Assembly: GCF_964355755.1 (NCBI RefSeq)
Contig: NC_092677.1
Location: 4,176,101 to 4,240,100 of the forward strand
Origin: Antedon mediterranea
Lineage: Eukaryota > Animalia > Echinodermata
Direction of reading: 5' to 3'
Length of the DNA stretch: 64,000 nt
Shown here: piece by piece, positions 17,308 to 58,529 of the stretch
Numbering within the stretch: the first letter of the stretch is position 1
Layout of the letters: the number at the start of each line of letters is the position of its first letter
Notes under the pieces: model-generated
Database searches by the model: none
Told to the model about the DNA's origin: nothing
The model's input: only the letters and a program-made list of their open reading frames with translations
Translations under genes and position numbers: made by a program

Positions 17308-20009
17308 TCAAACTTTATAGAGGTCAAGGTCATCAAGCTGTGTTTCGTCGTTATCTACGTATTCTATTATTACATCCCCACCGTTGAACAGAGGTTCGTC
17401 TTCATGGAGCAGTTTGGTCAGCTTCGCATCCATCGGGAATGTTGAACCAACAACCGGATGGAAAAGTCGGAGTTTCTTAAAGAAGAAAATAAAGATTTTT
17501 TTTTTAAAGCTCTGTCTACACCTATCAAACTTTATGAGACAATCAAAATGTGATGTGCCCATATATGGACATGATGATGTCGCTACCATATTTAAGCATA
17601 TCACTACCATATTTGGGCACATCACACATAGACAGAGCTTTATACAAGCATATACATAAAAAAAACTTGTAGAGCTTAATTAATGGGACACCTTCAGGAT
17701 CCATAGAAGTATCTTCTAAATAGCTGTTAGTCTTAGTGTTATAAACATATTATTGTCACAGGACAGTGTCCCTTTAGATGTCCCCACCCCAAGAAAAAGG
17801 GGTTGTGTTATTACATATATTGTCCCTTGTTTGTTTCAAAGGACAGTTCCCCTTTATTAGCTGCCCCTCTCCCCAAACAAGAAAAGGGTTGAACTTAGTG
17901 CTAAAACTTATATTGTCCCTTAGTTGTTTCATATGACAATATTCTTTTAATAGAGGTGTTTTCCCAACAGGTTCCATTGAGCATGCAATTTCAGATAATA
18001 GGTATTTTTATTTACCTTACTATCTGCTAGATTGTTTTCGTTCCTTAAGCTTGCCATAGTTGCTATTTTGTCCACAAGGCGACCTACACTCCATTCTTTT
18101 GAAAAATACATTGCTTTGCTCTTCTCTTTACACCGATGTTCAATGGGTAAATATACTTGGAAATATAAACGTTCAGTCTAAGTAAAACAAATGCAATAAA
18201 GAGTATTAATAAGATCAATTAATTAATTAATAGAAGGAAATTTAATAAGATTAATTAATAGAGAGAATTCGCTTATATTTTACAGAGCAAATAAAGAGAT
18301 AATTTAATATTTAAAAAAAATTAAATATAATTTTAACTTTTAGTGCTTCATTTGAGGCTTAGGGAGTAGAGTTGAAAGAGTCGTAAGTTACAACCCTGAT
18401 ACTACTGTAGGTCAGGATTGAACCTTGGACCTTGGGATTAGAAGGCAAACATGTTAACAACCAAGCCACAGCTGCACTACCTGAGGAATAGAAGCATCAC
18501 CAACTGCATGCATCTTCATCTTTATGAGGGCCACCTTAGCAGCGGTCTTCTGTGCCTTGCTGCTCAGCTGTTTCTTTGGTTTGGGTGGCTTTGATTTTAT
18601 CGAGTCTGCAGGAGAATGATAAAAATAAATTTAAAAAATAAACATTTACTGTAAGCCTACTGCAATTAAAGCTGGGTTCCTTTTGTTGACCTTTAGCTTT
18701 TACTGTACCTGTTATTTTTTTCACAAGCTCAGCTGTTTTTTGCATTGGTTCTGGCTTTTCTATCAGCATTGCACAGGAATGATCTTGTTGATGTCGATGT
18801 CTGAAAAACAAAATTGAATTGAAAAATTACTTTGTAAATTGTTACGTAGTGATACAGAACATATCTGCTTGAAATAAAAGAACACTTTTTTTTCTTGAAG
18901 TGCCTTTCTTAGACACCAGCAGTGAAAGTGCTACTAAATATGGAGATGATGGTCACTTTCTGGCCAATCATGCCTGTACACCTTACCGAAGGCAGAAGTT
19001 CTTTCTGCAATGTTCACATATAACTTGTGTGGGTACTTTATCCTTGCACTCAGTTAGTTCACATGGATATGATGAGAAAGTTGATGTTGGAGGTTCTGAT
19101 GATACTCCTCCAGTATCTTGAACATCCTATATGGAAAAACAACTATGTATAAGTGAAAAATGAAATTTTTTTTCAGGATATTAATTATATTTTTATTTCA
19201 TGCAACTTACTTGTATGCATTGGTGCAAGGATTTGCTTCGATGATCTTTACTATAATTAAAAATATTGTTTTCATATAAGTTATAACCATATATGATTGC
19301 TGATGAATAAATATAGAATTATAAAAAAAGTACAAACAAATCTATATATAAACTTGTAGGAATAATATTATTAATTGATACTTTCAGTCACACACAAATA
19401 TGACTAATGTCATGTGTAATAATTATGTTAGTCAACACTAGGGCCAGGCCTATACTTATAACATTATACATTAACATTGTGTTTGTTTCCTATTAACTTT
19501 AGACTTTGAAATTGATCGTAGATTTTATTTTTTTAACATACCAAAAGACTTGACAACAGTCCTCACAGTTGAATGGAAGAAAATCTGAATAGAAAAAAAA
19601 AGGATGTGTGTTTGGAATGTAAAATTGATGTTTATTTTTAATTAATTAATGTTTTAATTAGTCTAGAATTAAGTAAATGATAAATGACCAACACAACCAA
19701 CCACAAACAAAAACAAAAGGGCTAGGCCTGTGTCTTGTTTTGGACTCTCATGGAGCAGCCACTCAATCAATCGGCGAAGAAGCCCTGGTGGTACGGTGCG
19801 GGTAAAACAAGTAGGAGGCGGCCTAACCTAGATCGATCTTACGCCGCGAATACGTTTCATTATTATTTTTAGAGTCGTTATTAATTACGTTCATTTCAGC
19901 TCATGTATTAACAAAGGAAATTTAATTTATTCATGTAACTAACTAATAACTAACCAAGTTGATTGCAATTTGGAAAAGAACAGTGTTCGCCGATTTCAAG
20001 TTCAGCCAT
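17308..20009 (-). CDS. ZFAND1: AN1-type zinc finger protein 1 (two AN1 fingers plus C-terminal ubiquitin-like domain), 274 aa, 8 exons
   Basis: Exons 20009-19955, 19584-19542, 19250-19211, 19126-18987, 18800-18709, 18605-18481, 18177-18016, 17475-17308. All introns are GT-AG with compatible phases (825 nt). Translation: MAELEIGEHCSFPNCNQLDFLPFNCEDCCQVFCKDHRSKSLHQC...CEHCRKNFCLRHRHQQDHSC...KTAAKVALIKMKMHAVGDASIPQTERLYFQVYLP...WSVGRLVD...LFNGGDVIIEY. Confidence 0.95.
17508..17639. mobile_element. MITE family A copy in ZFAND1 last intron
   Basis: TIR and internal motif present; lies about 30 bp from the exon 8 acceptor. Confidence 0.85.
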
Positions 20010-27887: not shown

Positions 27888-30800
27888 TTACATATTCCTA
27901 ACTCGCTCCTCTAAAGCATTCAACTGGTTAGCAATCTCTTCTGGTAAGTCCCTATTTACTTGTTCATCAAAATATGTACGGATTGATTGTACTTCCTTTT
28001 CCCAGAATTCCTTTGGCAAATCGAAGATTGCATCCATATCTACTGGCTCGAGATTGTCCGTATTTATACTGCCCTTCGTTGGCACAAGACCGATCGGGGT
28101 TTTCTTGGAATTGTCTTCTCCGTCAACTCTACGGCAGATCCAATCGAGCACTCGTGAGTTTTCACCGAATCCAGGCCAGAGGAATTTTCCTTCTGAACTC
28201 TTGCGGAACCAGTTGACGTGGAATATTTTTGGTAATTTTGCGCCCTGATGGTTTTCCATACTCAGCCAGTGGCCCAAATAATCACCAAAATTATAACCAA
28301 AGAATGGTCTCATTGCAAATGGATCATGCATTATTACTTTACCTAGAAAAATAAAAAACCAAATAATTTTTTTATTTACTTATTAAATATACATGTTATA
28401 TTAAATAATTTGTTAAAAAAATTCTACAATAAATAAGGTAAAAAATAGCAATCTTTTGATACGCCACTAAAATAAGCAGCTATTGAGTCAGTCTAACAGT
28501 CGTTCGGTGCATGCTCATATGTTTCTGAGCGTTCACAATGACCTTTGTACTCAATAGCTACATATACAGGAACAGCAATAGATAGAATCATCAAAAAACA
28601 GATTACAATATTTCTAAAAACATAAACAATAATGTAAAAATCAATTAAACATTTCAGAAAAAATGTTTTTACTTAAAAAAAATATCTTTTTTAAGAAGAA
28701 GTAGACCATATTATATAACGCCTAAATAAATTCCTGTCATTTGATTGGACGATTGTTGGTCACATGGCGTGCAATAGTACCATACTTACCAACATGTTCA
28801 GCTGCAGCAGTTGATTCTGATCTCATTGCAGCTCCTACAAATACTCCATGTTTCCAATCAAAAGATTCGTATACTAGGGGAACACCTGAAAGACAATTGT
28901 ACATATTATAGTCGGTTTATATAAAAAAAAAAAACACTAATATACATAGTGTTGTGAAACAATGTTTCAGTTATAAAGCGCCTATGTATTTTAATATGAT
29001 TCCTAAAATCATTCGACAATCTGAAAATGTTATTTCCTTTAAACGTGAACTTAAACAATTTATTTCCAGTTAATATTGTTCGTACTATGTATATATATAT
29101 ATATATATATTTTTTGTTTTTTTCTGTCAACGATTTTAACTTTTATATGAATTTTATATAATCATTGTAAATTTTTAAGCCTTTAATATATTTCATGTCA
29201 TTTTAATATTTAATATTTTATGTGTTGTACTGTATGTTTGTTTTATCGAGGGCCCTGAATGATCAGTTCTATTAGGAACTGGATAGGCTACCCTCAGTAA
29301 ATATGGTAATAAATAAATAAATAAATTTTAATCTATGTACTAATTGTTATTGTCTTTCCAATAGGATGAAATGACCTTCCTAATTTCGAACCCTCCCAAT
29401 TACTTGAAAGGAATACTTTATCAATTGATAACATTTACACAAATCAAGGCAATTTAACAACAGGATGTTGAGATCTGGAGATCAAAGGGTTTATCTGTGG
29501 CTGCGACATGATCAGTTCAACACCCCTGCGCGCCGTGAAAAATATGTATATAGTACTGTAGTGTTAATATTTGTCGCAGCCAGACATAAGATCAAAGGGC
29601 TGTTCTTGTTCCTATTTTGGCAAGGCAAGCTCAGTAGGGTCCTGTTGTGAGATTTCACACTCTTTCCAACCTTACCTTCTGGTCTACGCCCACCAAACAC
29701 AATAGCGTCAATTGGCACTCCTTCAGAGCTCTCCCAGGCTGGGTCCATGGTAGGACATTGGCTGGCTGGGGTGCAGAATCTAGAGTTAGGGTGAGCTGCA
29801 AGGATCTTCTTGCCTGTGTCTGTTAACATGTCCTTATGCCAGTTCTTGTGGTCTAGCCAAGATGTGTATGTAAGGCCCTAAAAAATAATAATTATAAACG
29901 TAATGACCTAAAAGAATAGTTAAAATAATAATTTTTCTTATAAATCTCTATCGTTACATGTAGTGATTGATAAGGTTTTATGAAAGAAGTTATAGTAAAA
30001 AAAAAGTATTATACCCTCTGAAGATCTGTCTACACTATCAAACTAATTTGCAAAAAAAATGTGATGTGCCCATATACAGACATGACGATGTCATATCACT
30101 ACCATATTTGGGCATATCACTACCATATTTGGGCATACTGTATCACTACCATATTTGGGCACATCACACTTTTTTTGGCAAAATTAGTTTGATAATGTAG
30201 ACAGAGCTTTTTGGTATGTTTATATAGCTGGAACTGGTTGCTCCAGACAAATAATTATTTATAGTAAATTTGGCAAAGTAGGAAAATATCTTACACTTGG
30301 TGTTTCATCCTCTAATCCTTCCCACCAGAACCCTCCCTCGGAGGTCTCTGCTACGTTTGTGAAGATTGTGTTTTTCTGAATCGTCAGCATTGCGTTTGGA
30401 TTTGTCTTCATCGACGTTCCTGGAGCAACTCCAAAGAATCCAGCCTCTGGGTTGATAGCACGGAGCTTTCCTTCGCTGTCGAACTTCATCCAAGCGATGT
30501 CATCACCAACGCACTCCACCTTCCAGCCAGGAAGGGTTGGGTTCATCATGGCTAAGTTGGTCTTTCCGCAAGCACTTGGGAAAGCCGCTGCAATGTACTT
30601 CTTCTGCCCTTCAGGATTTGTGATGCCTAAAATCTATATTTAATCAAAAAGTAAAACAATGTCATGTTTTGGTTTTTTTGTCCTCAAGAATGCATATTTA
30701 ATTAATTTAATTTATAAATTGGCTAATACTTAAATTCAATCAAAACAGTAATAGTGTCAAGGTTTTTTTGGTTTTTCCTAAGAAATGTCATAATATAAAT

Positions 30801-33800
30801 TCATAATTGTGTTACTTTTGTGTATCTAATTTGCCCTTGAGGTTGATATACTCAAATCTGTACTATATTATTTATATTTTATTTTTTTTGTTTTGAGGTC
30901 GAGCCTATTCACCACAAGCTTTGATTTCTTTTAGGCTCCTCAACTTTATATTTATATATTTGGAGTGAAATAAATGAAATGAAATGTATTTCAATATGAT
31001 TAAATTATTGGTTTGTAATGGTTTTAATTATTTCATTAAAAAAAAAACAATTTGACTATGAGTGTTAAGTGTAGTCTGTATTCAATTATTAATATGATGA
31101 ATGGATAAATAAGATGCTATTATGTTTTCTAATGGTTTCAATTATTTAATTAAATTTAACAACCATTCTTACCAACATATGTTCGGCTAACCATCCCTCG
31201 TCTTTTGCGATGCGTGACGCAATTCTCAACGCAAAGCACTTCTTGCCGAGTAAAGAATTTCCACCGTATCCGCTACCGAATGAGCAGATTTCCCTTTGGT
31301 CAGGAATGTGAGCGATTAGGGTCTTTGCGGGATTACACGGCCAGTTGTTTACAGGTGGTTCTAAAATAAACAAGTTAAATTAGTTACATTGTATATTTTA
31401 TTAGAATATTACAACAATAGTTTATTTTAAAAAACAGCTTGTATTGTCCATACAGTATACTGTAGTATACACCTGTCTCACCATACATTTTAGATAATGA
31501 AGATTACTGTATAAAACTTTCAAGATAAGAAGAAAAATGTTTCAAAATACTTACTCTCCATTGGAAGAGGTTGTCCCACCGAATGTAAACATTTGACAAA
31601 TTCTCCGTCTCCTAGCGTATCAAGAACTTTACCTCCCATTCGAGTCATAACCCTCATGCTAGCTACAACATAGGGGGAGTCGGTAACCTGGATGCCGATC
31701 TTGGACAGTGGAGACCCGACTGGTCCCATACTGAATGGAATAACGTACATCTTTCTTCCTGGAATAGGTTATAATTTATAATTACAATTGTTTATATCAA
31801 TGGGTTTTTTTTATATAGTGGATTTACAATTGTAACAATCTTTCAAACACAAACTCTATTAACGGGCACATCTTTGGGACCAAAAAGGTGTCTCCTTACT
31901 ACTACTAAGGTTCAGAGAATATGTACATGGTACAGTACTGTTAGTATTTGTTGCAGCCAGACATAAGATCAAAGGACTGTTACGAGTTCCTATCTTGGCA
32001 TGGCGAGCTCATGGTCCTGTATATTGCCTTGGTCCAATGATTCATAATCAGGACTGTATTTGGTCGAATTAATGTTTGTGTACAATCTCGAAGAAATGGA
32101 AAGTTTGCTGTTGCTAATATACAGTACAGTAAGTATAAATACTCTAAATACAGACAGGTTGCTTAGTAGGTCTACTGTATTGTCATCTACGATTTTCAAC
32201 TTAAAATTGAAATTGACAATTTAATAAACTACGGTTGTACCTTTCATACATGCTGGAAAGCGTTCCCTGAAGTCTTGCTGGAGCTCGTTTTGAGATCTCC
32301 ATTGACCCAGAGTTCCTTTAACATCCTCCTTCACAATTGGAATGGTGTCTCGTTTGTTTGGTGTGCATATTACGGTCTTGCTCTCCACTCTGGCTACGTC
32401 CTTTGGGTCAGTCTTTGCAAGCCAGCTAAAAGTTAATAACATTTGCACAATATAATAATATGTTTAAGATTTGTTAAGTGCACATATCCACTAAAGTGCT
32501 CAAGGCGCTGTGGACTAAATGTTACACTTTCAATAACATGCTTCTCCCCTAAGGGTCTTGTCATGTCCTGCAGCCACTTACGGCGCTTACTCTTCTGTCC
32601 ACGACACAGTGGCTGAGTGTAAACTAGTACATAGTTTACTGCAGTGATCGCCTAGTTACTGCAGTAATTGCAGGAGAATAATTTGAATCATGAAGCTCCT
32701 AAGCTGTACACAAGATTTAAAATTGATATGGTTATCCGTTTAGTTGGTAAAAATTTAAATATTGATATTGTGTGTCACACAATAAAAAGGTCTGTTCAGA
32801 CAGCTATAAAAACCATTAAAAATATGATTATTTAACAATATGTTTAACATCTGGTGGTAATGTTAAGTAAATACAGTACACCAATGTGGTTCATATAACA
32901 ATGATGCATCATAATGCTGTACAATATCTTAAACATTGTAGAGTTACTAAGAAATGTACTGTGTACAGCATATTAACATCAATATCTAAAGGAAAAATAC
33001 TGAAAAAATGTAAATGTTGTGGGTACATTCAGTGGCTGGATTTCAATGGAATTCTAATAAAAATTTAAAGATAATATAAGCAAAATCAAAACGATATTAA
33101 AACGGTAATAAATACATACAGTACAGGCAGTAAGAAATTGCAAAGCTTTCGAAAAGCTTCCTAACTTACTGTAATATATACAGTACATAAGTCTTTTTTT
33201 CTAAAGTGATTCAATGTGTGCCAAATGTATTTCTTTTACAAATATTAATCCAAATCTCTATTTACACATGACTTAAATTGTTCAGAAAACAAATCAATAG
33301 GATGGTACAGATTGGTATTTCACAATATAAAAAATTAATGTTCATGACTTGCAGATGTAACTGGAAATTAGAAAATGATTTGCATAACAAAGGCGATCCG
33401 ATGACTACAGTACAACAATACCTGTTTGTTTTATCTCTAGATAGAATTCTACACTTTATAAAAATACTCAAATGGCAAAAACCACAACACAATGCAATTT
33501 AAGTGATGACCATTCTTTAGTACTTAGTAGTAATAATAGATTGTCATGTGACAATGTGGTTTTCACTTCCTTTCATTATCTAACCTTTCAATATTAACCT
33601 ATACTATATTTAAATCTTTTTCTATAATTCCTCTTTAGGGACCATTCAAAAAGTTTTCCTGACAATTTCAATAAAATAAATTAATAAACATGAATAATTA
33701 AGGATTTCAATATTTTAAAAAGATGATTATTTTTTGTTATGTTATTAATAATACTGATTATAGTACTGTACTCTTTGTATTCAAGATAAATTTAACCAAT

Positions 33801-36344
33801 TAAATTTAGACGGAGTCAAATCACAGCAAAAAAACCAAAAAACTTAACTATACTGTATTGTATAAAATCGGCATTTAAATATTATCAGTTATCAAGTTGC
33901 TGGTAGTATATAAGTGTCATTTTATAAAATAATGTGTTTGTACTGTCTAAGTAGTAATACATATCTTTTCTTTTGCTCATCTTTAGAATGATCTGCAACA
34001 TAAAGAAGTGATGACCAATTGGTATTAAAAAAATGTTTTACAAATTATTTTGATACTTTTTGGTTAATATTGACTCGGTTTTTTTAAAAAGAATAGTTTG
34101 TTAGACGCCTTTTGAGCAATGTGCTGGTGAACAGAGTGGAAAAGGAGAGAATGTGATTGGGATGGAAATACTATAGAGAATGAAGACAAGATTGTGACCA
34201 AAGACTGGGTTCACTTGAGAAAAAATGTGCAGCCTTGCGGGCAAAAGAGGATAGGTACACTGTATGTACGAAATGCTAAACGTCACCTATCTTTTGTAGG
34301 GGACCTAGACCGACAGTACATAAATGCTTTGTACTTTAAACAGAGACACTTGACTTTAAAAACTGTCACCCCTGTAAAGCTCTGTCTACACTACCAAACT
34401 ATCATGGACATGATGATGTCATATAACTACCTTACCATATTTGGGCATATCACTACCATATTTGGGCATATCACTACCATATTTGGGCATATCACTACCA
34501 TATTTGGGCATAGCACTACCATATTTGGGCATATCACTACCATATTTGGGCATATCACTACCATATTTGGGCATATCACTACCATATTTGGGCATATTAC
34601 TACCATATTTGGGCATATCACTACCATATTTGGGCATATCACTACCATATTTGGGCATATCACTACCATATTTGGGCATATCACTACCATATTTGTCAAA
34701 CTACTGTAGTGTACGCTACAGTACTTGGCAACTATTCAATTATTAGAATTTATTTAATGTATGTAGTTTGACTGTAAAAACAATGTCCCGGTTTTAATCC
34801 ATACAATTGAAATATTTTACGGACCTTGGACTGGTTGTTTTATCAAGATTACTTCACACATTTTCTGATAACCTGTCGCAGAATTCTTACTAAGTAAATT
34901 TTACCTGGACTAAACAAACAAAACAGTTCAGTAGTTATGCTTTATGAAATAGGTGGGTGGGCCGGCTACACACTCTCAATAACAGGGCAAGGGATTAGTT
35001 ATATTTATTGTACAAGTGTACAGTCAACTCTCACAATACAGGATTCACTGGACACCAGAAACTCTCTTTTAACTAAACTTTTTGGCCTCCAAAATCTGTT
35101 TCACAATAAAAACAGCCTAATTGTGTTCGGTATTGGGAGTGTTAGAACTACCTACTTATGAATCACTGGTCATTACTTGAAACAATGGAGTGATTCAACA
35201 AAACTAAAAAGTATTTAAAAGTGAAAGACAAAGGAGGAACACATTGTCACAATTATGTTAATCTCTGTCTACAATATCAACCTTTATGTAACAAAAAACA
35301 TGATGATGTCATATCACTACCACATTTGGGCACATCAAATTTTTTTTTTTTCAAATTAGTTTGATAGTGTAGATAGAGCTTTACAAGAAGGTATCATGTA
35401 GGCCTTCTGAATGTGATGTGCCCATATATAGACATGGTGATGTCATCACTACCATATTTTGGCACATCACGTTTTTTAGTCAAACTAGTTTGAGTGTAGA
35501 CAGAGCTTTACTGTACTGTAGGAGTGATTAAGAAACTTCAGACAATAAAGGTAGTATGAATATAATATTGCAAAATTAATAACAACACTAAATTACCAAT
35601 TCTCATATTTTGTTAGTCTTTTTATCATGCCTTCTTCTTCCATAAGCTTTAGAAGTTGTTGTTCCTCTTCTTCTGATCCGTCACATATATAAATACTGTC
35701 CGGTTTGCAGAGCTCTGCTTTTTCCAACACATACTCTTTGACGTGAGGTCGTAAGTCATTCACTGTCATCGACGACATGGCTGGATGTGTTGTTACTGTA
35801 AAACGTCTCAACTTTTGAAAACTGTTAAATGATTTGACCACAGAGGTACTTCTCCTAAAAAAAATAAAATTAATACAGTATATAATTGATTATGATTGCT
35901 TATAATAATTTAAAAAAAGTACGTCTGACAGTAGTCCAGACAATTCTTGGCTTATACTAAGACATGCTATTAGTTTGTTTAAAACAACTACAGATTAGAC
36001 CCAGGTAAATATTTTTTTGAAAAAGTAGATTTTCGATTAATTCTGACATTCAACATTAGTCATTACTGTTGTTGGAAATCTAAGAGCACATATTATTAGG
36101 ACTGTATTTCGAAGGCGTATATTTAAACCAACCAAACTGCTATAAATTACTAATATGAATGCGCTCTTTCAAACTGACACGTACGCCTAGGCTAGCCCCT
36201 CCTCCTACACAAACACAACAGGCATTGTTTAGTGTCCAGCAACAACCGGTTGGTTGGACGGTCCCTTCTTTTGAAGAGGCCTAGCTTCAAGATTATTTTT
36301 AACACTTTCACTTACCGTAACAGCTGAAATGTTAATAGTGTCAT
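27888..36344 (-). CDS. PCK2: Phosphoenolpyruvate carboxykinase [GTP], mitochondrial-type precursor, 651 aa, 9 exons
   Basis: Exons 36344-36316, 35854-35597, 32425-32241, 31758-31555, 31360-31173, 30633-30295, 29877-29676, 28885-28790, 28342-27888. GT-AG introns, phases consistent (1956 nt). Contains [60 protein letters not shown] and [10 protein letters not shown]. The N-terminal 35 aa are Arg/Ser/Thr-rich with no acidic residue. Likely co-orthologous to vertebrate PCK1/PCK2. Confidence 0.96.
28950..29325 (+). mobile_element. 5'-truncated CR1/L2-group LINE 3' end in a PEPCK intron
   Basis: 28957-29073 reads [38 protein letters not shown], the typical ORF2 C-terminus pattern, followed by a 3' UTR and (TAAA)n tail. 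Related tails in reverse orientation at about 11810-11870 and 51590-51930. Confidence 0.7.
30022..30208. mobile_element. MITE family A copy (PEPCK intron)
   Basis: Both TIRs and three internal 21-bp units, one interrupted by CTGTA. Confidence 0.85.
34378..34714. mobile_element. MITE family A copy with the internal 21-bp unit expanded to a 12-copy minisatellite (34433-34694)
   Basis: Left TIR, then (TACCATATTTGGGCATATCAC)x12, then a degenerate right TIR. Confidence 0.9.
35261..35507. mobile_element. Two adjacent MITE family A copies (35261-35380; truncated 35410-35507)
   Basis: TIR and internal motif matches. Confidence 0.8.
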
Positions 36345-37560
36345 TTTGAAGCACACTTTTATATACTATTTTAGATCAAATAAATAAGGATTCTATTGCT
36401 AAAAATATACAAAAACTGTCAATTCACTAAGTGACCACAGCATCAAACGGCGCGATCAGCTGGATTGAAGATGACCTAATGCAAAGCCGGCCGGGAGATC
36501 AATCTGCGCAGACTCAAATGTCAATTCACACATAGGAAAATTCCACTCATTTGTGCTAAAAGCAACAAAATATACCAAAAAGGCAAAATTTGCTATTAAC
36601 AACTTATTTCTGATCGGTATATTATTATTATTGATTTATTTTTATGTTTTAATTAATTATTAAATTCAAATTTGATAATTTTATGAATATTAATTTCGGT
36701 TAATTAAAGTAGATCGCCACTAAGTACAGTCTTGTTATCACCCGCGTACTAATATTAAGTATATGTGGAGGTGTGTAATAATTACAGATTTTGATTGGTT
36801 AAATAAGTGGTGTGTGTCGCCGGTGTGGCCATTGCATCATTGTTTTTGACAACAGCTGATCGATGTGGTAAAACGTATAGTAGCCACGAATTATTTTATG
36901 ATTAATACGCAATCAAAACAAATATTCCTCCTATGAAAGCTTTATATTAAATCTACTACATTAACGTATATAAAAAACCACGATATAAAGATAAATGATG
37001 TATTTTAGTCCTAGCCCACTGTTAAGAAAAAAAAAATTAGGATCGCGTTTTCTTTCTGTTTCAGGTAGGTGGGTGTTTGTAAATAACTAAGCTATGCCTA
37101 CTGAGTAGTATTCGGACACTGATGTATACTAAATACAATATTTATGGAAAAACTCCACAGTTCTTTTCAGAATTAATATACGTGGTGACGGCAAACTTTA
37201 TATCAACATATCAATATATATTTATCATAATATCAAACTCATAGGCCTATCAAGATAACTTAGTTACTACATATTATCTACTATATCTTCGTGATTTATA
37301 TTATGTATAATAATGGATTTAACAAGAAAAAAAACCAATTGATTTATATTCGTAATCAATAAAGCATGATAGTTTTATTTATCTGTGCTTGTAATACTAG
37401 AAAATTCAACTTTAAAATGAATCACATCACTAATAGTTATCCTCGTCGACATTTTCGTCAGCTATTTAAATTATATTTTGTTATCTAACTGTTTCGTTAT
37501 CATTGCTATTATTGATAATGATCTACAATTAGAAAACCGGAATTAAAAACGTGTACTTAC

Positions 37561-37592
37561 CTTAGTGAGGATATGACGAGAACTACGGACAT
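37561..37592 (-). CDS. Putative alternative first exon (1b) of PEPCK: MSVVLVISSL(R)
   Basis: Perfect donor AAG|GTAAGT at 37561/37560. The ATG at 37592 gives 32 nt, phase 2, in frame with PEPCK exon 2. TATAA at 37637 and an Inr-like TCACTT (+1 about 37609) lie at canonical spacing. Confidence 0.6.
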
Positions 37593-37599
37593 TGATCAA

Positions 37600-38430
37600 C
37601 TTATCAAGTGACGACACGGATGACAGCGACAGTTATAATCGTAGGAACAAATAAATATAATACTTTAAGATTAAATTGCCTTGTGAGATGGTTTTAATAT
37701 TGTGACGTACAATATGAATGGCTTTGGTATGGAAAATAGTGGGCATGGCATATTTCTGCCGTTTCATTGGCTAATTCGGGGGTGTGTTCGGTGACATTTT
37801 GTGGAATAACTATTGTGAGTCAATAGTCCGTGACGACTGGCGTATGATGCAACCATCATTTTATTGTGTTTGGAAAATGACAAATTATTGTCCTTGTTTT
37901 AAAATGATTCTGCACTATTTACTGTATAATTTAAAAAAGCGTTTTCTTTACTAAAAAAAAACTTCGATTCACTATTATTAAGCATAAAAACCAAGGGAGG
38001 CATAAACCATGCGTCTACTGTGACTTTTAAGTTTATGACGATTTGTTTTCTTCAGTGAAATCTGAAAGGACATGTTAACCTCCACAGAAAATTAGTAGAC
38101 GACCTGGCCTATTAATTCTATGCCATTGAACGAGCGCGCGTCAAATCACGTGGGCCTCCTGAATATGGGGTTCTGAGATTAGCCTATTTATTTAAAAAAA
38201 GACGTCCTTTAAACATCAACTCAGTGTGAAAACCACTTTACGGATGAGTATTCTTACAATGCATTGATATAGGTACAGGTACAACGTATAAATATGCCAC
38301 GTCGGCAACCAACAATGACTTTGACGACATTTTACAATGACACGGCCTCGACTCCAAAGTTAAATCTACCGTACCTGAGACACCGTACTGTGTTGTGACG
38401 TGTGAGCAAGAACAATTACACTGACGTCAT
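37600..38430 (-). promoter_or_regulatory. TATA/Inr promoter with CCAAT and CRE elements upstream of PEPCK exon 1b
   Basis: TATAA at about -28, TGACGTAC at 37703, CCAAT (minus) near 37766-37770, TGACGTG at 38396, and a perfect TGACGTCA at 38422-38429. Confidence 0.5.
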
Positions 38431-39579
38431 AAATAATTCTTTACAAAACGGGCCGGGTAGGGGACCAAGGAGGGGGAGGGGTGGTGTGTGGGTTTGGGTG
38501 GAGCGGGTTGCTGCATGGTTCACGTTTCCTGCGATCCTGGTATTTATGTAACACGTACATAATCTATCTTATAATGTACAGGTAATCAAATGCAGTAGTG
38601 AAGTCGTATGGCCACAAATGATTTAATATTGAATGTTTGCTTCATTAAAAAAGCTGTATTATTAAAAACACTATTATTTCTTTGTTTATTATAAATATTA
38701 ACATTAATAATAAACATTTATTGTGGTAAATGATGGCAATATCGGCTACTTTCTTCTTTCTTTCTTTTATTTACCCAAAATAAATTATAAGCATGGTAAA
38801 CATATAAAACCAAATCATATCGTGGGAACAAAAATAGTAAAAACTAATCAAATTTAATATTTGGAAATCTTAGGCTTTAGTTAGTTATAGAAAATTTGAC
38901 AGGGTTGGTTTTTTTTTCCAAGGTAGAAATACGAAACGACCCGCGAATATTAATGGAACTTAACCCTCTAAACTCTCTCAATTATTAAAAAAAATAAGAA
39001 GCTATGTAACTAATGTATTGGTCAAATAAGGATTTTGTACCATTTGACTAGTGGGTCACAAGAGGCAAATTAGCCTATGTAATTTTTATACCCACACACA
39101 ATAAGTTTCAAGTTTCAATGAAATGTTTTGGTAAACACAAAATGCATCGATTATCATGATCGACAGAGCAGCCATATATATGGCTCTGGTTATCGAAACG
39201 TCATAGCTCCCTCTATAGTTGATAACTAATTATGCAAATTTCGATGTAGCTAGCAAAAAAAAATTATTATTAAAAAAATTATTTTAAAGTTATTTTACGT
39301 AAAAAATACAACAGGATACACTAAACAGTACCTTTTATTTACGTGGATTATTAATCTTGATAACATTGAAATTATGTAATATGTTGTATTACGGAATTTC
39401 CAATGACACTGGAAATTCTAGATACACGACAGCAGCCGACATGTTGACAACAGATACTTAAAACAATTAAAACTTGTATTAATACATGTAGTGCAACACT
39501 TAATATTGATAATTAATGTGCAAGTTTAAATAAATATAAATATCAATATTAATGTTAGTGCAATAATTAAATTAAATAA

Positions 39580-39955
39580 AATTAATTAAAAATTTGCTTT
39601 AAATTAAAATTCTATCCCATAGTTGGCTTATACTTAAAAATTAATTAAACAATTTTCTTTAAAATAAAATTCTATCCCATAGTTGGCTTATATTTAAAAA
39701 TTAATTAAAAATTTTCTTTAAATTAAAATTCTATCCCATAGTTGGCTTATACTTAAAAATTAATTAAACAATTTTCTTTAAATTAAAATGCTATCCCATA
39801 GTTGGCTTATATTTAAAAATTAATTAAACATTTTCTTTAGCCTAAATTAAAATGCTATCCCATAGTTGGCTTATATTTAAAAATTAATTAAAAATTTTCT
39901 TTAAAGTAAAATTCTATCCCATAATTGGCTTATATTTAAAAATCAATTAAAAATT
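39580..39955. repeat. AT-rich tandem repeat, about 59-60 bp unit, 6 copies
   Basis: Core CTATCCCATAGTTGGCTTATA recurs every 59-64 bp. Confidence 0.92.
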
Positions 39956-40916
39956 GATTTTAATTTATTTCTTGATTATTTAAGAGGCCAATATGACGTC
40001 ATGTGGCGATACGAAATTTTCTCAAAATTGTCATAATATAGCTTTCTTTCTTTTATTTCGAATTTGTTTTTTGATCTGGAAGTTCATCATATTCCCACTG
40101 TGCTTTCCTATCTTTTGTTTAACTGTTTGTTGAAAGGAAATTGTACAGTAGCAGTATAATGTATTGTTATTCAGTGACATTTATCAAATTTGTATTTTAA
40201 TTACTTATTAATATATTTTATTAATCCTCCGTATTTATTGATGATCTTTTATTTATTTCTATTGTTTGTAAATTACACAAACGAAGTCATTATTTGGTCT
40301 CACGCCAAAAATTAATTATTTAAATTTATAATTAAATTAGAGGTGTTATATATTTATATATACACATTTATTCACGAGACTGGTGTATACAGCACAACTG
40401 TTGTTTTTACACAAGTTCGTGATGATATATGTAAAACTAATCGTTGGAAACGCTCTACCATCCCATAACATTATTGATAGAATGAATGAAGCTTCTCAAA
40501 CTAAAACTTTGTAGGTTTGCAACATTAATAATAATGAACGAAGTAATGAATACCACATGCCTTGGTTTATGACTGAATCTGGGTCTTTTGGCATTTTAAT
40601 AATTTTAACAACTTTTATAGCTATTTTTAATAACTAATTTTAACTAATTTAATAGTTAATAATTCATTCATAATAACATTTATTTCTTATCTTTCAAAGT
40701 AAACGAAATAACAATTTAAATATAAATAATTCAGAGGCAAAACCCAGAAAGTAATAAAATTTGGAAAAAATAGTGATAATTAATAAAACACTATATAAAT
40801 ACAAAAAAAAGAAAGAAACATTTTAAAAGAAAATTACAGCAAAATCCCTTCCGCTATTTAGTACCACCGGTATAAATAAAAACAAGTTAAAGACAAATAA
40901 AAAATCTTTTAAACGC

Positions 40917-42224
40917 TCAAAAAGGATTATTTAAAATTGCTAAGAACCTTGATTCTGAAAGTGTGGAACCTCTTTTGGAAATGGCAACACATTTACAGCG
41001 GTCAACCTCCTTGATGAGGTCAAGAAGTGATCGTTCTTTTTCTTCAGAACCGTCACATCTATCAATGCTGTATGGTCTGCAGATCTCAGCCATCTCCATG
41101 ACGTCTTTGACGCCAGGTGTAAAGTTATTCTCTTTCATCTCAGCCATTGCGGGGTGTGTTGTGTTTGTAAAGCCTCTCTTTCCCGTCATCACAGCCATTG
41201 CGGGATGTGTTGGCAATGTAAAACCTCTCTTTCCCGTCATCACAGCCATTGCGGGATGTGTTGTGTTTGTAAAACCTCTTTTTCCAGTCATGGTAGCCTT
41301 TGCTGGATGTGTTGTGTTTGTAAAACCTCTCTTTCCAGTCATGGTAGCCAATGCGGGATGTGTTGTGTTTGTAAAACCTCTCTTTCCCATCATCACAGCC
41401 ATTGCTGGATGTGTTGTGTTTGTAAAACCTCTCTTTCCCGTCATGGTAGCCATTGCTGGATGTGTTGTGTTTGTAAAACCTCTCTTTCCAGTCATGGTAG
41501 CCATTGGGGGATGTGTTGTGTTTGTAAAACCTCTCTTTCCAGTCATGGTAGCCATTGCTGGATGTGTTGTGTTTGTAAAACTTCTCTTTCCAGTCATGGT
41601 AGCCATTGCTGGATGTGTTGTGTTTGTAAAACCCCTCTTTCCTGTCATCACAGCCATTGCTGGATGTGTTTTGTTTGTAAAACCTCTCTTTCCCGTCATC
41701 ACAGCCATTGCTGGATGTGTTGTGTTTGTAAAACCTCTCTTTCCCGTCATCATAGCCATTGCGGGATGTGTTGTGTTTGTAAAACCTCTCAACTGTTGAA
41801 CATTGTTGAATGTTTTGACCACAGAGGTACTTCTAAAAAACAAATAATAAATGCGATTCCGGTAAAATTAGGCGCTAACGTTAATTATTGACAATTGAAA
41901 CCAGTCAACGACCTCAATTAAGAGGACGATTGAAAGAAAAGCTCTGTCTACACTATCAAACTTTATTTGAAAAAAAAAGTGATTTGCCCATATTAGACAT
42001 GATAATGTCATCACTATTTGGGCATATCACTACCTCATTTGGGCAGATCACTACCATATTTGGGCAGATCACACTTTATTTTTGTCAAACTAATTTGATA
42101 GTGTAGACACTACAATAATTAATACACAAGTAGAGCTTCAGAACAAAAAGTAATGGAAGTCAAAAATTCTAATCGTGCTTGACTGCCATAGCACTTGTAC
42201 TTACCGCAACAGTCGAAGTGCCAT
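40917..42224 (-). CDS. PEPCK-derived two-exon gene: duplicated exons 1-2 with a 17-aa repeat expansion, predicted 311 aa, no catalytic domain
   Basis: Exon 1 42224-42205 (MALRLLR, donor CG|GTAAGT) aligns with PEPCK exon 1 and its 5' UTR. Exon 2 41832-40917 (acceptor TTTTAG) aligns with PEPCK exon 2 (STSVVK.FN..Q.LR.FT.TTHPAM ... VK..V.E.AE.C.P.SI..CDGSEE). Phases join, the ORF is intact to TGA, and a minus-strand AATAAA lies at about 40686-40681. Could alternatively be a pseudogene. Confidence 0.7.
41136..41789 (-). repeat. Coding 51-bp tandem repeat, 12 full plus 1 partial unit (RGFTNTTHPAMA[V/T/M]MTGK)
   Basis: Directly visible; no indels among units. Confidence 0.97.
41940..42109. mobile_element. 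MITE family A copy in the intron of the PEPCK-derived gene
   Basis: TIRs and internal motif present. Confidence 0.8.
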
Positions 42225-43635
42225 TTTCAAGAACACGTTATCGTATGTAAAACAATGAATCCCCTGGAATGCAGAAATTACCACCAAAGTGTCACGTCCA
42301 AAATCAGTAAATGACACGATTTAAAATATAAACAATTAAGAATAATTTATCATATATTATAATTGACGTCACAATAGTTGCCGACAATATAATTTGTTTA
42401 TAATTCTATTCACGTTTTTAATTTAGGAAGTTCGTAAGATTTCTTTAGATTCATTGGTTAAACTCGTTGTTTTGTATTCAAATTGTATCATTGTACGTAA
42501 ACAAAATTTAAACCAACCAACTAAATTTCACTTGTACCTTGTTGTTTAAATGAGAATAAATAATATCGTATCGTATCGTAAAATGATAGGTGTGGAAACA
42601 GGGATTACTTTGATCATCATAAGGTCTCCCTCTATGGGCTATTTGTACCTTCGTATAAAGCATATTGTTAAATTATCTGTGAAATGTAAATAAACAAGAA
42701 ATATTTCTTACAAAAAACGCCGCTCGACATTTTAAAATGAATCATTGTTCTTTTGATTAATTTATGATTAATTATTAAAGATGTCCTTTAATCGCAAAGA
42801 TACATACAAATCACAGATAGTTAATTGTATACACAGCATTTGTAAGACATGTGTACCTTTCCAACAATGTATTATTTGCTAAAAAATATTACTACTAATT
42901 AAAAAATGGCATTTAAAAATGGTCAATTTTTAACTTTAATGTGTTGTAGGCTGTTTGTGTGTGAGTTCGACCTGTACTGTAGGCATGCAACTGAATACCC
43001 TCACGAGACAACGTGACTTCACGGTGGTACACAAGTGAGAAATTTCTTCCAGTCTGTTGATTCGCGTCAACCAATCAAAGGGCGAGAATCCAAAATCGTT
43101 CAATCGTGAGCCCTCATAGACTCTCTTTTCCTAGACGTTTTTTTTTTGGGTCCAGCAGCTGGGACCTATAAATTATAGTCGAGTTTACAAATTCGCAAAA
43201 CTGTCGGCCTTAGATACTAAGGATACCGCTATGAAACAGCTGATTAATGAATATGTCCTCTTGGGACATAGCTGGCTAGAGCCGCGGCGCGAACAAAACA
43301 CATACGCATCTACATTTCACTGGGTTTAAATGTCCACGTAATACAGTAGTGACGCATCATGCCGCGATGGATTTAATAACGTAACGTACGTTTGTGTTAG
43401 GCCTACGACACTATAGGATACTGCATTTCAGGTATTGAAAAATCGATTGATCACACTCAATTGTTAGTATATAGTGCCTTCTATGTATCTGGTTACGGAA
43501 CCTGGGATGTAAAGCACTGTGCTGGTTGTGCTTTAAACTTGGTTCTTCTCACACGCAATTAATTTCACTTCATTCATATACGATTAAACTGATCCGAATC
43601 TATCCGAATTACACATCCAACGTCCGTCGTAGTCA

Positions 43636-44742
43636 TAAACTCCGATATAACTCCGATGTATTCCTACCTCCGATATAACTCCGATTTATTCCTCCGATGT
43701 ATTCCTCCGATATAACTCCGATGTATTCCTCCGATATAACTCCGATGTATTCCTCCGATATAACTCCGATGTATTCCTCCGATATAACTCCGATGTATTC
43801 CTCCGATATAACTCCGATGTATTCCTCCGATATAACTCCGATGTATTCCTCCGATATAACTCCGATGTATTCCTCCAATATAACTCCGATGTATTCCTCC
43901 GATATAACTCCGATGTATTCCTCCGATATAACTTTGATGTATTCCTCCGATATAACTCCGATGTATTCCTACGATATAACTCCGATGTATTCCTCCGATA
44001 TAACTCCGATGTATTCCTACCTCCGATATAACTCCGATGTATTCCTCCGATATAACTCCGATGTATTCCTCCGATATAACTCCGATGTATTCCTCCAATA
44101 TAACTCCGATGTATTCCTCCGATATAACTCCGATGTATTCCTCCGATATAACTCCGATGTATTCCTCCGATATAACTCCGATGTATTCCTCCGATATAAC
44201 TTCGATGTATTCCTCCGATATAACTCCGATGTATTCCTCCGATATAACTCCGATGTATTCCTCCGATATAACTCCGATGTATTCCTCCAATATAACTCCG
44301 ATGTATTCCTCCGATATAACTCCGATGTATTCCTCCGATATAACTCCGATGTATTCCTCCGATATAACTCCGATGTATTCCTCCGATATAACTCCGATGT
44401 ATTCCTCCAATATAACTCCGATGTATTCCTCCGATATAACTCCGATGTATTCCTACCTCCGATATAACTCCGATATATTCCTCCGATATAACTCCGATGT
44501 ATTCCTCCGATATAACTCCGATGTATTCCTCCGATATAACTCCGATGTATTCCTCCGATATAACTCCGATGTATTCCTCCGATATAACTCCGATGTATTC
44601 CTACCTCCGATATAACTCCGATGTATTCCTCCGATATAACTCCGATGTATTCCTACCTCCGATATAACTCCGATGTATTCCTCCGATATAACTCCGATGT
44701 ATTCCTTCGATATAACTCCGATATATTCTTCGATATAACTCC
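43636..44742. repeat. 24-bp minisatellite, about 45 copies (CTCCGATATAACTCCGATGTATTC), occasional +CTAC variants
   Basis: Highly homogeneous tandem array without spacers. Confidence 0.97.
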
Positions 44743-55494: not shown

Positions 55495-57194
55495 TTAGGA
55501 AGTTTCCAATGTTCTGTTTGGCAATGACGAGTTTCCCTTGTGAATACAAACAAATGTTATCTTAATTGCGGACTAATTTATAAATAATCACAGGTGGTGA
55601 GGTCAATTTACATAAATGCATCACATCCCCATGGCATAATGACCAGACAAGCTAGGCCTACTACGTCACTTAAATTAATTGCTTCCGCGGCGTTCAGGCC
55701 GATAACCATCATACCCTTACCCACTATAGAGATATTCATTTTGATCATTATCAGGGCCAAAAGGCCAATAACGAATGACAGATCTGACACATAGTAGGCT
55801 AACCGCCCCCCTCCCCACCTCCGTCATCAGGTTGGGTCTTACCACCACGAACTGAGGACAGTTTGTAGTCCCGACGCGTAGGCCAACCAAGTGAAGATGC
55901 TTAAACAGGTACATACTAAGCACATTTCCTCTTACCCGGCGCGAGTGCCTAGTCCCGTCCTCAACAAGGACGACAGACGAAGGTTGGCGTCAGCAGACAC
56001 GAAACTGTACACTGTTTGTTGTCGGTAGGCATGATACCGCACGAGTATCGAGTACTTCATACTAATGTTAGTGTCACCGCGCTTTGTTTTCTATCATTTC
56101 ATTATTCCCATCTGGAAAATCGTCCGCTTACAATCTCACCATCATTCACGCAATATCACGGTGTTATACGACCACCAAAGTTTAGATAAAACATTCCAAT
56201 TCTAAGCCATCAAAACTAAGACCATGAAGGAGTAAGTGCCAACTTACTCAGGAAATTGACTCCACAACGCGTGTGGGGAAATTAGTCTCTCGGCGGGTTT
56301 CACTTTTTCTTAAATTGGTGTCCGTGGTTTTGCTTCTGAAGTTCTAGTTATACTCTTGTCAGTTGTGAGTCAATGGCAATTTTAGAACTACGATGCAAAT
56401 TGAATGGCATTAAGATTATATAGACAAGCATTGTCAACTTGCCGCGAAAGAATTTTTACAAATCTGTATTTTTTATTCATTCGAAAAGTACAAATTTAAT
56501 TCAATCAATGGATTAATTAGAACTGCATAACGCTGTATTGACACGAGATACAAGCTTGAAAATGTTGGCAGCATTTTTATGCTATTTCAAAAACAAAAAT
56601 AAAAGAGAATATAAGGTTTGCAACGGGAAACTTTTGAGGCAGCGGCGTAACGGCTATCGGCTATGAGCGCTCGCTGGCTAAACACAGGGGCCCCGGGGCC
56701 TATATGGAGCCCCTGAGCAGTGTCCAGAGGAAAAAACAGGCATTGAAATATGTTGAAAAAGGCTAAAAACATCCGAGGCCTGCAGGGTTGGAGGGTCACT
56801 ACACCAGGGTGCTGATTTTATTCTTTTTTATATTAAGTTGCCATGAGAAAAACCAATTTCAAATCTTTCGTTGACGAACTATTTGACAATAAAGTTATCT
56901 TGTACCTTGTATCAAGCCTCTGCGTTAACCAACTGCTCGGAGGGTAGCAATCTTTGGTAAAGTGTAATCCCGACAATATTTTATAAACCAATAGGCCTAC
57001 GCATAATAATATTATTTTAATATACACTGATCTAAATAAGTATGAACAAATCGAGGTCTGAAGAGCCTACAGTATTTGTCGAAACAAAGGGCCTAGTATG
57101 ACATCAGAGCTTTGAGGTAACGTAATGCTATAGGCCTAAACATAATATTTAAAACAGATTAGGATTTTTAAACATGTTGGTTTCCATGCCGTAA

Positions 57195-57351
57195 AGCTAT
57201 ACACTATCAGACTAGTTTGACAAAAAACGCGTGATGTGCTCAATTATGGTAGTGATATGCCCAAATATGGTACTGATATGACATCAACGTGTCCATATAT
57301 GGGCACATCACATTTTTTTGTCACATAAATTTTGATAGTGTAGACAGAGCC
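57195..57351. mobile_element. MITE family A copy
   Basis: Right TIR intact; left TIR partly deleted. Confidence 0.8.
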
Positions 57352-58529
57352 TTTACTCTTATCCTTCATCAAATAGAGGTTTTCATGTTGTTGTTGTTCA
57401 ATATATCAAAAATAATCCCTGTTTAAATTGTACCTATATTTGTTAAAATACCAATTAATTCAATACAAAAGTCTCAACGAAGATAACTCAATAAATAATT
57501 TACGAGAGATTCGTTTAAATGACTTTCATTCAGGCCAACCATCATCATTATGGGTGGGTGTTAACGAAGGATGAAGTAACATAACGATATAATATCAGAT
57601 ATCAATATTGTAGGCCTATGCGGTCCTACACATATACATTTGCCTTCCAGGTGACAGGGTTATTAAACACACTCATTTTCGGCTTTGAAAACCCTCGTTC
57701 ACGAACCAATTCAAACCGTGATCACAGTTTATACCCAACGAGTGCAATGCAACGCATAGCGTCTTGACCTTGGCCATGGAAATCGGTTTTACGTCATACT
57801 GACGTCATAACGAGTTTGCATTAGCTTTGCTAACTGCACCGTTGTGGAAATCTCGTCTTCCTTTATAGACGAATAGAGAATTATGTTTATTTTATCTTAT
57901 AAAAACAAACTTATAAAATTGAATAATTAAGAAAATATTAATTACAGTGGGTCGCCAATAAGGAGACACCTTTCACGATCATTTAGAAGTTTTGAAAAAA
58001 ATTCCACTTGTAAGTGTCCTTTGAATAGAGGTATTCACTGGGTAGGGGTGTCTCTTGAATAGGGGTACCCCCAAATGAGTAATTCTAGGCTACTATAGCC
58101 AAAACGAATTCGCCATGCACAGACATGATGTAAATAAGTATTTATTTTATGAGGTCATGCGCATATTAAAGAAAGTCTTATAGGCCTACCAATGTACAAA
58201 GCCTTATAATACTGCATAGCAGTAATAAAATATAGGACCCTAACAAAAGACACATTAAATTGTCATGTTACATTATAAACCCTCGTAGTTTGACAATAAC
58301 ATTATTTTGCGGGTACAGTAAGCCAAATATATGGTTTCATTTTATGCAAGCCTAGATAAAAAATGTAATAAAAATATTATGGGAAGTTAAATCACTCACC
58401 TAACCCATCACACACACACTACCGGTATGGGCTCGTTTAAGGTCATCGGAGAACCGCGTAGATTGTCCCACGTATCCTCAGAACGCGGAAACCGCGCGTC
58501 CACTTCGCGTTGTGTGTAAATGGTCATAA

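Follow-up and report, generated by a model that had tools for sequence, protein, structure and literature searches.

A minus-strand open frame of Antedon mediterranea that encodes 13 tandem copies of a predicted mitochondrial protease site is probably a truncated copy of the first two PEPCK exons, in which one 51-base site has expanded to 13 copies and which is drifting under little or no selection. The frame lies in a 64,000-nucleotide stretch of contig NC_092677.1, the window, to which all positions refer. A preliminary description had interpreted it as a giant presequence that is cut serially by mitochondrial processing peptidase (MPP) and MIP/Oct1, and that acts as a decoy or as a source of signalling peptides.

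The PEPCK gene and its truncated copy

An intact PEPCK-GTP gene occupies the minus strand from approximately 37.6 to 27.9 kb of the window and is, exon 2 included, 100% identical to Antedon mediterranea PEPCK-GTP (XP_071957603.1, XP_071957602.1). Two alternative first coding exons feed its single exon 2, and both N-termini are basic and acid-free and carry a match to R-10, the consensus for cutting by MPP and then MIP/Oct1. The source record calls the protein 'cytosolic-like' despite these basic, acid-free N-termini. As judged from sequence, the locus under study duplicates only the first two exons of this neighbouring gene, in truncated and diverged form. The features of parent and copy are listed below.

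37561..37592, minus strand: parent alternative first coding exon, start of isoform X1; translates to the N-terminus of P0004
36316..36344, minus strand: parent first coding exon 1b, start of isoform X2; 100% tblastn match to P0002 residues 1-10, with the spliced GT-AG joint to exon 2 contained in run X1 (presumed RNA)
35597..35854, minus strand: parent exon 2, holding the single ancestral unit at 35758-35808
27891..32424, minus strand: the seven further PEPCK-GTP exons of the intact parent; above-cut-off matches to Pfam PF17297 and PF00821, and tblastn with P0002
42205..42224, minus strand: counterpart of parent exon 1b, the first coding exon; ATG, codons MALRLL and two bases of Arg, then a GTAAGT donor
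41833..42204, minus strand: predicted GT-AG intron of 372 nt, phase 2 as in the parent
41790..41832, minus strand: start of the duplicated exon 2; 14 presequence-like codons, 10 of 14 identical to the parent
41135..41790, minus strand: 51-bp coding minisatellite, expanded from parent codons R26-N42; R-10 in 11 of 13 units, G-K-R at 12 of 12 junctions
41005..41140, minus strand: degraded remnant of the start of the PEPCK N-terminal domain; about 45 residues, 72% nucleotide identity to the parent
40917..41004, minus strand: tail of 28 codons followed by TGA, not alignable to the parent, with the parent donor unrecognisable

The copy of exon 1b is 9 nt shorter than its parent and aligns locally to positions 36290-36420 with a score of 50 that was reached by none of 1000 shuffles, and copy exon 2 retains 72-80% DNA identity to parent exon 2 on both flanks of the array. 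On the minus strand the frame 40917-41867 is open and spans the array; when copy exons 1b and 2 are joined by analogy with the parent, the predicted splice product is an open frame of 311 codons. The copy-intron joint was absent among the 15 joints listed of the 26 in run X1. The range originally assigned to the locus, 41136..41832, ends at the splice acceptor, and its true start, the ATG exon, lies outside that range. The copy intron also holds a short dispersed, high-copy repeat (~41938-42110) that has inverted ends, contains a 21-bp unit and recurs at 30021-30203, 34420-34726, 35260-35512, 57200-57354 and elsewhere. Its 21-bp unit is expanded to 12.5 copies at 34433-34695, where four frames are stop-free.

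Downstream of the array, parent homology stops near 41005, and the parent sequence after approximately residue 80 is lost from the copy. The remnant matches PF17297 below the cut-off (E 0.0081), covers only profile positions 3-49 of 218 and shows radical changes within the conserved stretch preceding CDGS. Homology of the tail to the end of the parent exon is not significant, the alignment score being reached by 857 and 1616 of 2000 shuffles, and remnants of later PEPCK exons were not detected near the copy by tblastn to E 10. The complete PF17297 and PF00821 domains of a PEPCK-GTP enzyme are accordingly absent, and what the copy displays is truncated homology to a neighbouring intact gene. 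Exon 1b, the intron phase and exon 2 are homologous between the two, whereas the copy has 13 units in place of one and is missing some 570 residues, among them the entire catalytic portion. The reading as a giant presequence finds no support, as no enzyme lies behind the array: homology ends at ~41005 and the frame stops at 40917.

An enzyme with such a presequence would be made if the copy served as an alternative 5′ module and were joined to PEPCK exon 3 by splicing, and the copy does lie on the parent strand, 5 kb upstream, with one AG↓GT in the correct phase at 40948/40947. This donor is, however, far from consensus, no GT[AG]AG donor occurs inside the copy exon, and the domain piece of the copy is degraded. 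Both listed Antedon PEPCK isoforms use the normal exons, a weak search found no longer protein containing the copy region, and the run X1 contig that reaches past the candidate donor (40948) continues for only eight letters, too few to count as bridging. We regard this arrangement as hardly credible.

In the wider window, searches of open reading frames of at least 40 residues on both strands from 36 to 64 kb gave no Pfam match above cut-off, and hence no neighbouring gene that explains the locus. Exons of a ZFAND1-like gene, with zf-AN1 and UBL_ZFAND1 matches, lie at 17311-19126 on the minus strand.

The array and the origin of its motif

The minisatellite has a period of 51 bp, 12.9 copies and 91% matches, and all of its units evidently descend from one ancestral unit, which corresponds to parent codons R26-N42. 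R26 is the site of the only R-10 match in parent PEPCK, the remaining 615 residues having none, and this match sits at the predicted end of the presequence. In passages of PMC8847149 and PMC11626719 the R-10 consensus is given as R-X↓F/L/I-X2-T/S/G-X4↓X, the arrows marking the cuts. By this consensus, MPP would cut the parent after R27, and MIP would then leave Met36 at the start. Because these cuts would leave Met36, the source of the internal ATGs of the array, the motif is likely a genuine processing site that has been inherited and copied 13 times. The motif in the array is explained by descent, since the parent carries its single R-10 match in the ancestral unit. Moreover, because the 13 units were copied from a single one, the motif count, the basicity and the lack of acidic residues amount to one observation, not 13. 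The PEPCK orthologue of Anneissia is without the -5 residue of R-10, and the MIP part is therefore unconserved even within the parent family.

Each unit had been said to contain RGFTNTTHPAM. The core R-x-F-T is indeed present in all 13 units, but the exact motif occurs in only seven and the R-10 pattern (R at -10, F/L/I at -8, T/S/G at -5) in 11, units 3 and 12 having K or P at -5. Approximately 3% of random 17-codon stretches from the 64-kb window match R-10 by chance. Two further claims were borne out. The first ~235 residues were described as basic and without Asp or Glu, and in the predicted spliced product the first acidic residue is number 238, with 30 Lys or Arg before it; in-frame GCAATGG was attributed to most units and occurs in 10 of the 13. 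The internal ATGs, copied from the codon of parent Met36, all lie downstream of the first ATG of the copy, which is in a strong context. The MPP/MIP reading thus survives in that the unit goes back to the MPP/MIP site predicted in the precursor of a mitochondrial-type PEPCK, but not in its count of 13 sites.

The 51-bp unit was likely multiplied by slippage or unequal crossover, and the expansion would have taken place in a minisatellite-rich region that holds six arrays of more than 250 bp, this one included. One of the other five has four stop-free frames. A 24-bp array of 43 copies lies at 43692-44742, just upstream of the copy's first exon, and a 59-bp array lies at 39578-39955, where a run X1 contig skips 186 bases, which suggests copy-number variation between individuals. 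A plus-strand antisense frame, 40981-41799, is open across the array from an ATG; its start is Ser/Arg-rich, and it is likely due to chance. The other open frames of the array gave nothing above cut-off in a Pfam search. Matches of the full frame in the PDB to proteins with 34-residue repeats were rejected as an artefact of twice the 17-residue period.

Divergence, selection and expression

Over 75 aligned codons, 26% of bases and 41% of residues differ between copy and parent, and the pairwise omega of 0.40, to which the constrained parent branch contributes, is distinct from 1 (p 0.009). With Anneissia as outgroup and 56 positions for branch assignment, 16 changes fall on the copy branch, two on the parent branch and six are ambiguous; the copy protein changes approximately eight times faster than parent PEPCK-GTP. 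Under a two-branch model in which synonymous time is taken as equal and the parent omega is fixed, the copy-branch omega is 0.52-0.63, with 1 not rejected and 0.1 rejected. The copy probably evolves almost neutrally, at an omega of about 0.6.

Allele differences in contigs point the same way. The complete run X1 table for the copy frame holds five non-synonymous differences and one synonymous, whereas in the parent exons none of 13 is non-synonymous among the 40 of 203 rows listed (Fisher p 0.0005). One of the five copy alleles could reflect a misplaced repeat unit, and two of them are neighbours; counting the copy as three of four gives p 0.006. These alleles say little on the array itself, because five of the six lie in the remnant or the tail. 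Among array units, seven of 20 variants are synonymous (p 0.12-0.25 against neutrality), or seven of 16-17 when counted as codon events (p 0.04-0.17), the latter being a weak hint of constraint in the array. Two amino-acid changes fall on the three motif positions, and both destroy R-10; with selection on the copy weak or absent, the selected decoy or signalling role originally proposed is not upheld.

The frame itself tells a somewhat different story. Given 26% nucleotide divergence, a stop-free copy frame has a chance of 0.09-0.19, and the three alignable indels (9, 3 and 3 nt) as well as the 51-nt unit are all multiples of three, as against two of 17 listed non-coding indels. The copy also retains its ATG and both splice signals despite this divergence. 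Frame retention suggests that the frame was selected during part of the copy's history, and a dead copy poorly explains a frame that survives several in-frame indels. This evidence is only moderate, because the length of the frame is what drew attention to the locus, which moreover is disrupted by the break at 41005. The locus might then be a young translated gene whose frame is under selection and whose function is independent of the processing motifs, for example a basic, Thr-rich, disordered protein. The retained frame and an omega point estimate below 1 agree with this; the allele differences, which mostly alter the protein, and the lack of an orthologue or annotation do not, and we hold such a gene to be unlikely.

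Transcription of the copy is possible. Contigs of run X1, which carry neither strand nor level, cover 38789-39105, 39614-40496 and 40940-41202 as well as the array interior, that is, portions of the copy and of the 2 kb that follow it; the lack of cover at 37450-38649 and 42490-42700 proves nothing. AATAAA sites occur at 38771, 38722 and 38690. An annotated protein matching the copy was not found in the protein collection by word-based searches, five candidate translations or a similarity search, the 73 representative matches showed neither unit words nor PEPCK similarity, and no orthologue of the copy appeared among the protein matches examined.

5′-partial tandem duplicates and pseudo-exons with coding minisatellites form a general class. 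Like its members, the copy is truncated, neighbours its source, experiences relaxed selection and has been lengthened by repeats; it differs in that the repeated unit coincides with a protease recognition site. It may also be likened to the young open reading frames elongated by tandem repeats that are treated in PMC12888051. The order of events would be a tandem partial duplication of the first two PEPCK exons after the split from Anneissia, then divergence, then a young expansion of the array.

Possible fates of the encoded protein

If the protein is made, import into mitochondria followed by internal MPP cuts is plausible. Residues 1-21 of the predicted N-terminus have the composition of a presequence, with three Lys or Arg and no acidic residue, and a hydrophobic moment of 0.56, compared with 0.65-0.75 for the starts of crinoid PEPCKs and 0.49 for a cytosolic one (a simple calculation on the predicted splice product). 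Any product would be imported via this basic N-terminus. Internal MPP cleavage is established, and a strong N-terminal presequence lets MPP cut internal sites, as passages of PMC8734313 describe; MPP would for this reason cut some of the R-G↓F sites of the array. The pieces would be cleared by presequence peptidases as a by-product (PMC5391191).

A stronger proposal holds that the array is a selected mitochondrial polypeptide, cut serially by MPP and MIP to 8- and 9-residue peptides that serve as an MPP decoy or a peptide source. In its favour are the genuine ATG exon with its basic, amphipathic start, the R-10 matches, the frame maintained through in-frame indels, and the inhibition of processing by presequence peptides that are left uncleared (PMC5391191). 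The motif is inherited rather than evolved, however, and broken in two of 13 units, the MIP part is unconserved in the Anneissia orthologue, and neither a selection signal for such a polypeptide nor an orthologue of one was seen. In addition, the repeat units are weakly amphipathic (moments of 0.04-0.48 by the same simple calculation), and internal MPP sites reportedly need a presequence-like context (a passage of PMC8734313). We judge this proposal unlikely.

Eleven units match the R-10 consensus of substrates cut by MPP and then MIP/Oct1 (PMC8847149 and PMC11626719, in part), but known R-10 substrates have one site ahead of a folded protein, whereas the copy has 11, no folded cargo and a cleavage that is predicted from sequence. 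The MPP polyproteins (yeast Arg5,6 and Atp25, S. pombe Rsm22-Cox11, rice RPS14) and the two-step substrates frataxin and Neurospora Su9 resemble the copy in having more than one MPP site per precursor, according to sections of PMC8734313 and PMC8847149. In these known multi-site substrates, one or two sites separate functional proteins and are conserved across species; the copy is instead a near-identical tandem array, and its lack of an orthologue and its omega of ~0.6 contrast with the conserved functional products of an MPP polyprotein.

The G-K-R junctions admit another interpretation, in which the array now serves as a co-opted, neuropeptide-like precursor and convertases cut at Lys-Arg after Gly to release about 11 amidated 14-residue peptides. 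The peptides would be dibasic-bounded with a terminal Gly at every junction, two features by which crinoid precursors are recognised (PMC9793003), only synonymous changes occur there, and the parent has V-N-R at this position, making the signal new; Gly plus a dibasic pair arises in approximately 0.8% of random 17-codon stretches. Still, G-K-R was spotted post hoc, and with 10 of the 17 columns invariant, the invariance of three given columns has p 0.18. With the homologous first exon the product has no N-terminal signal peptide, its best 9-residue hydropathy within the first 35 residues being 0.59. Mechanical prediction offered 34 candidate upstream exons, of which one with a signal-like sequence, ending at 55843, was rejected as having no support.

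The best of the 73 representative matches, the unnamed protein P0008 (E 7e-19), has 15-mers between G-K-R in the same register, although E-values are inflated by periodicity. The P0008 cluster (ENA, unnamed) consists of repeated 15-mers with an Asp-Pro-Leu core between G-K-R and resembles pedal peptide/orcokinin precursors. According to PMC9793003, echinoderm precursors of this type share with the array short repeats between dibasic sites, a Phe near the start and a terminal Gly; that of Anneissia has 12 copies, and none was found in A. mediterranea. By the definition in that source, the array differs: its units have His-Pro-Ala, with neither an Asp-x-Leu core nor an aromatic residue at the C-terminus, no signal peptide precedes them, and they descend from PEPCK. 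A word search of the text of PMC9793003 and seven supplements, with cells read to 400 characters, found the unit absent from the crinoid precursors. Co-option as a neuropeptide-like precursor is in our view highly improbable.

Taken more broadly, it is doubtful that a new polyprotein gene has arisen here from an enzyme presequence, being translated, selected for its frame and cut into a dozen near-identical peptides, either by MPP/MIP in the matrix or, should a signal-peptide exon precede it, by convertases that act at G-K-R and yield amidated neuropeptides. If translation and cutting did occur, the product would offer a natural MPP substrate with many sites in which processive scanning by MPP could be tested, or a case in which the origin of a multi-copy neuropeptide precursor can be traced to an unrelated enzyme gene; neither was found in the open-access literature. 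Function of the copy is more likely absent; if it has a product at all, this most likely represents a by-product of decay and not a functioning source of peptides. As a decaying duplicate the locus would be ordinary, and it would illustrate how one slippage event may turn a single protease site into a polyprotein-like layout.
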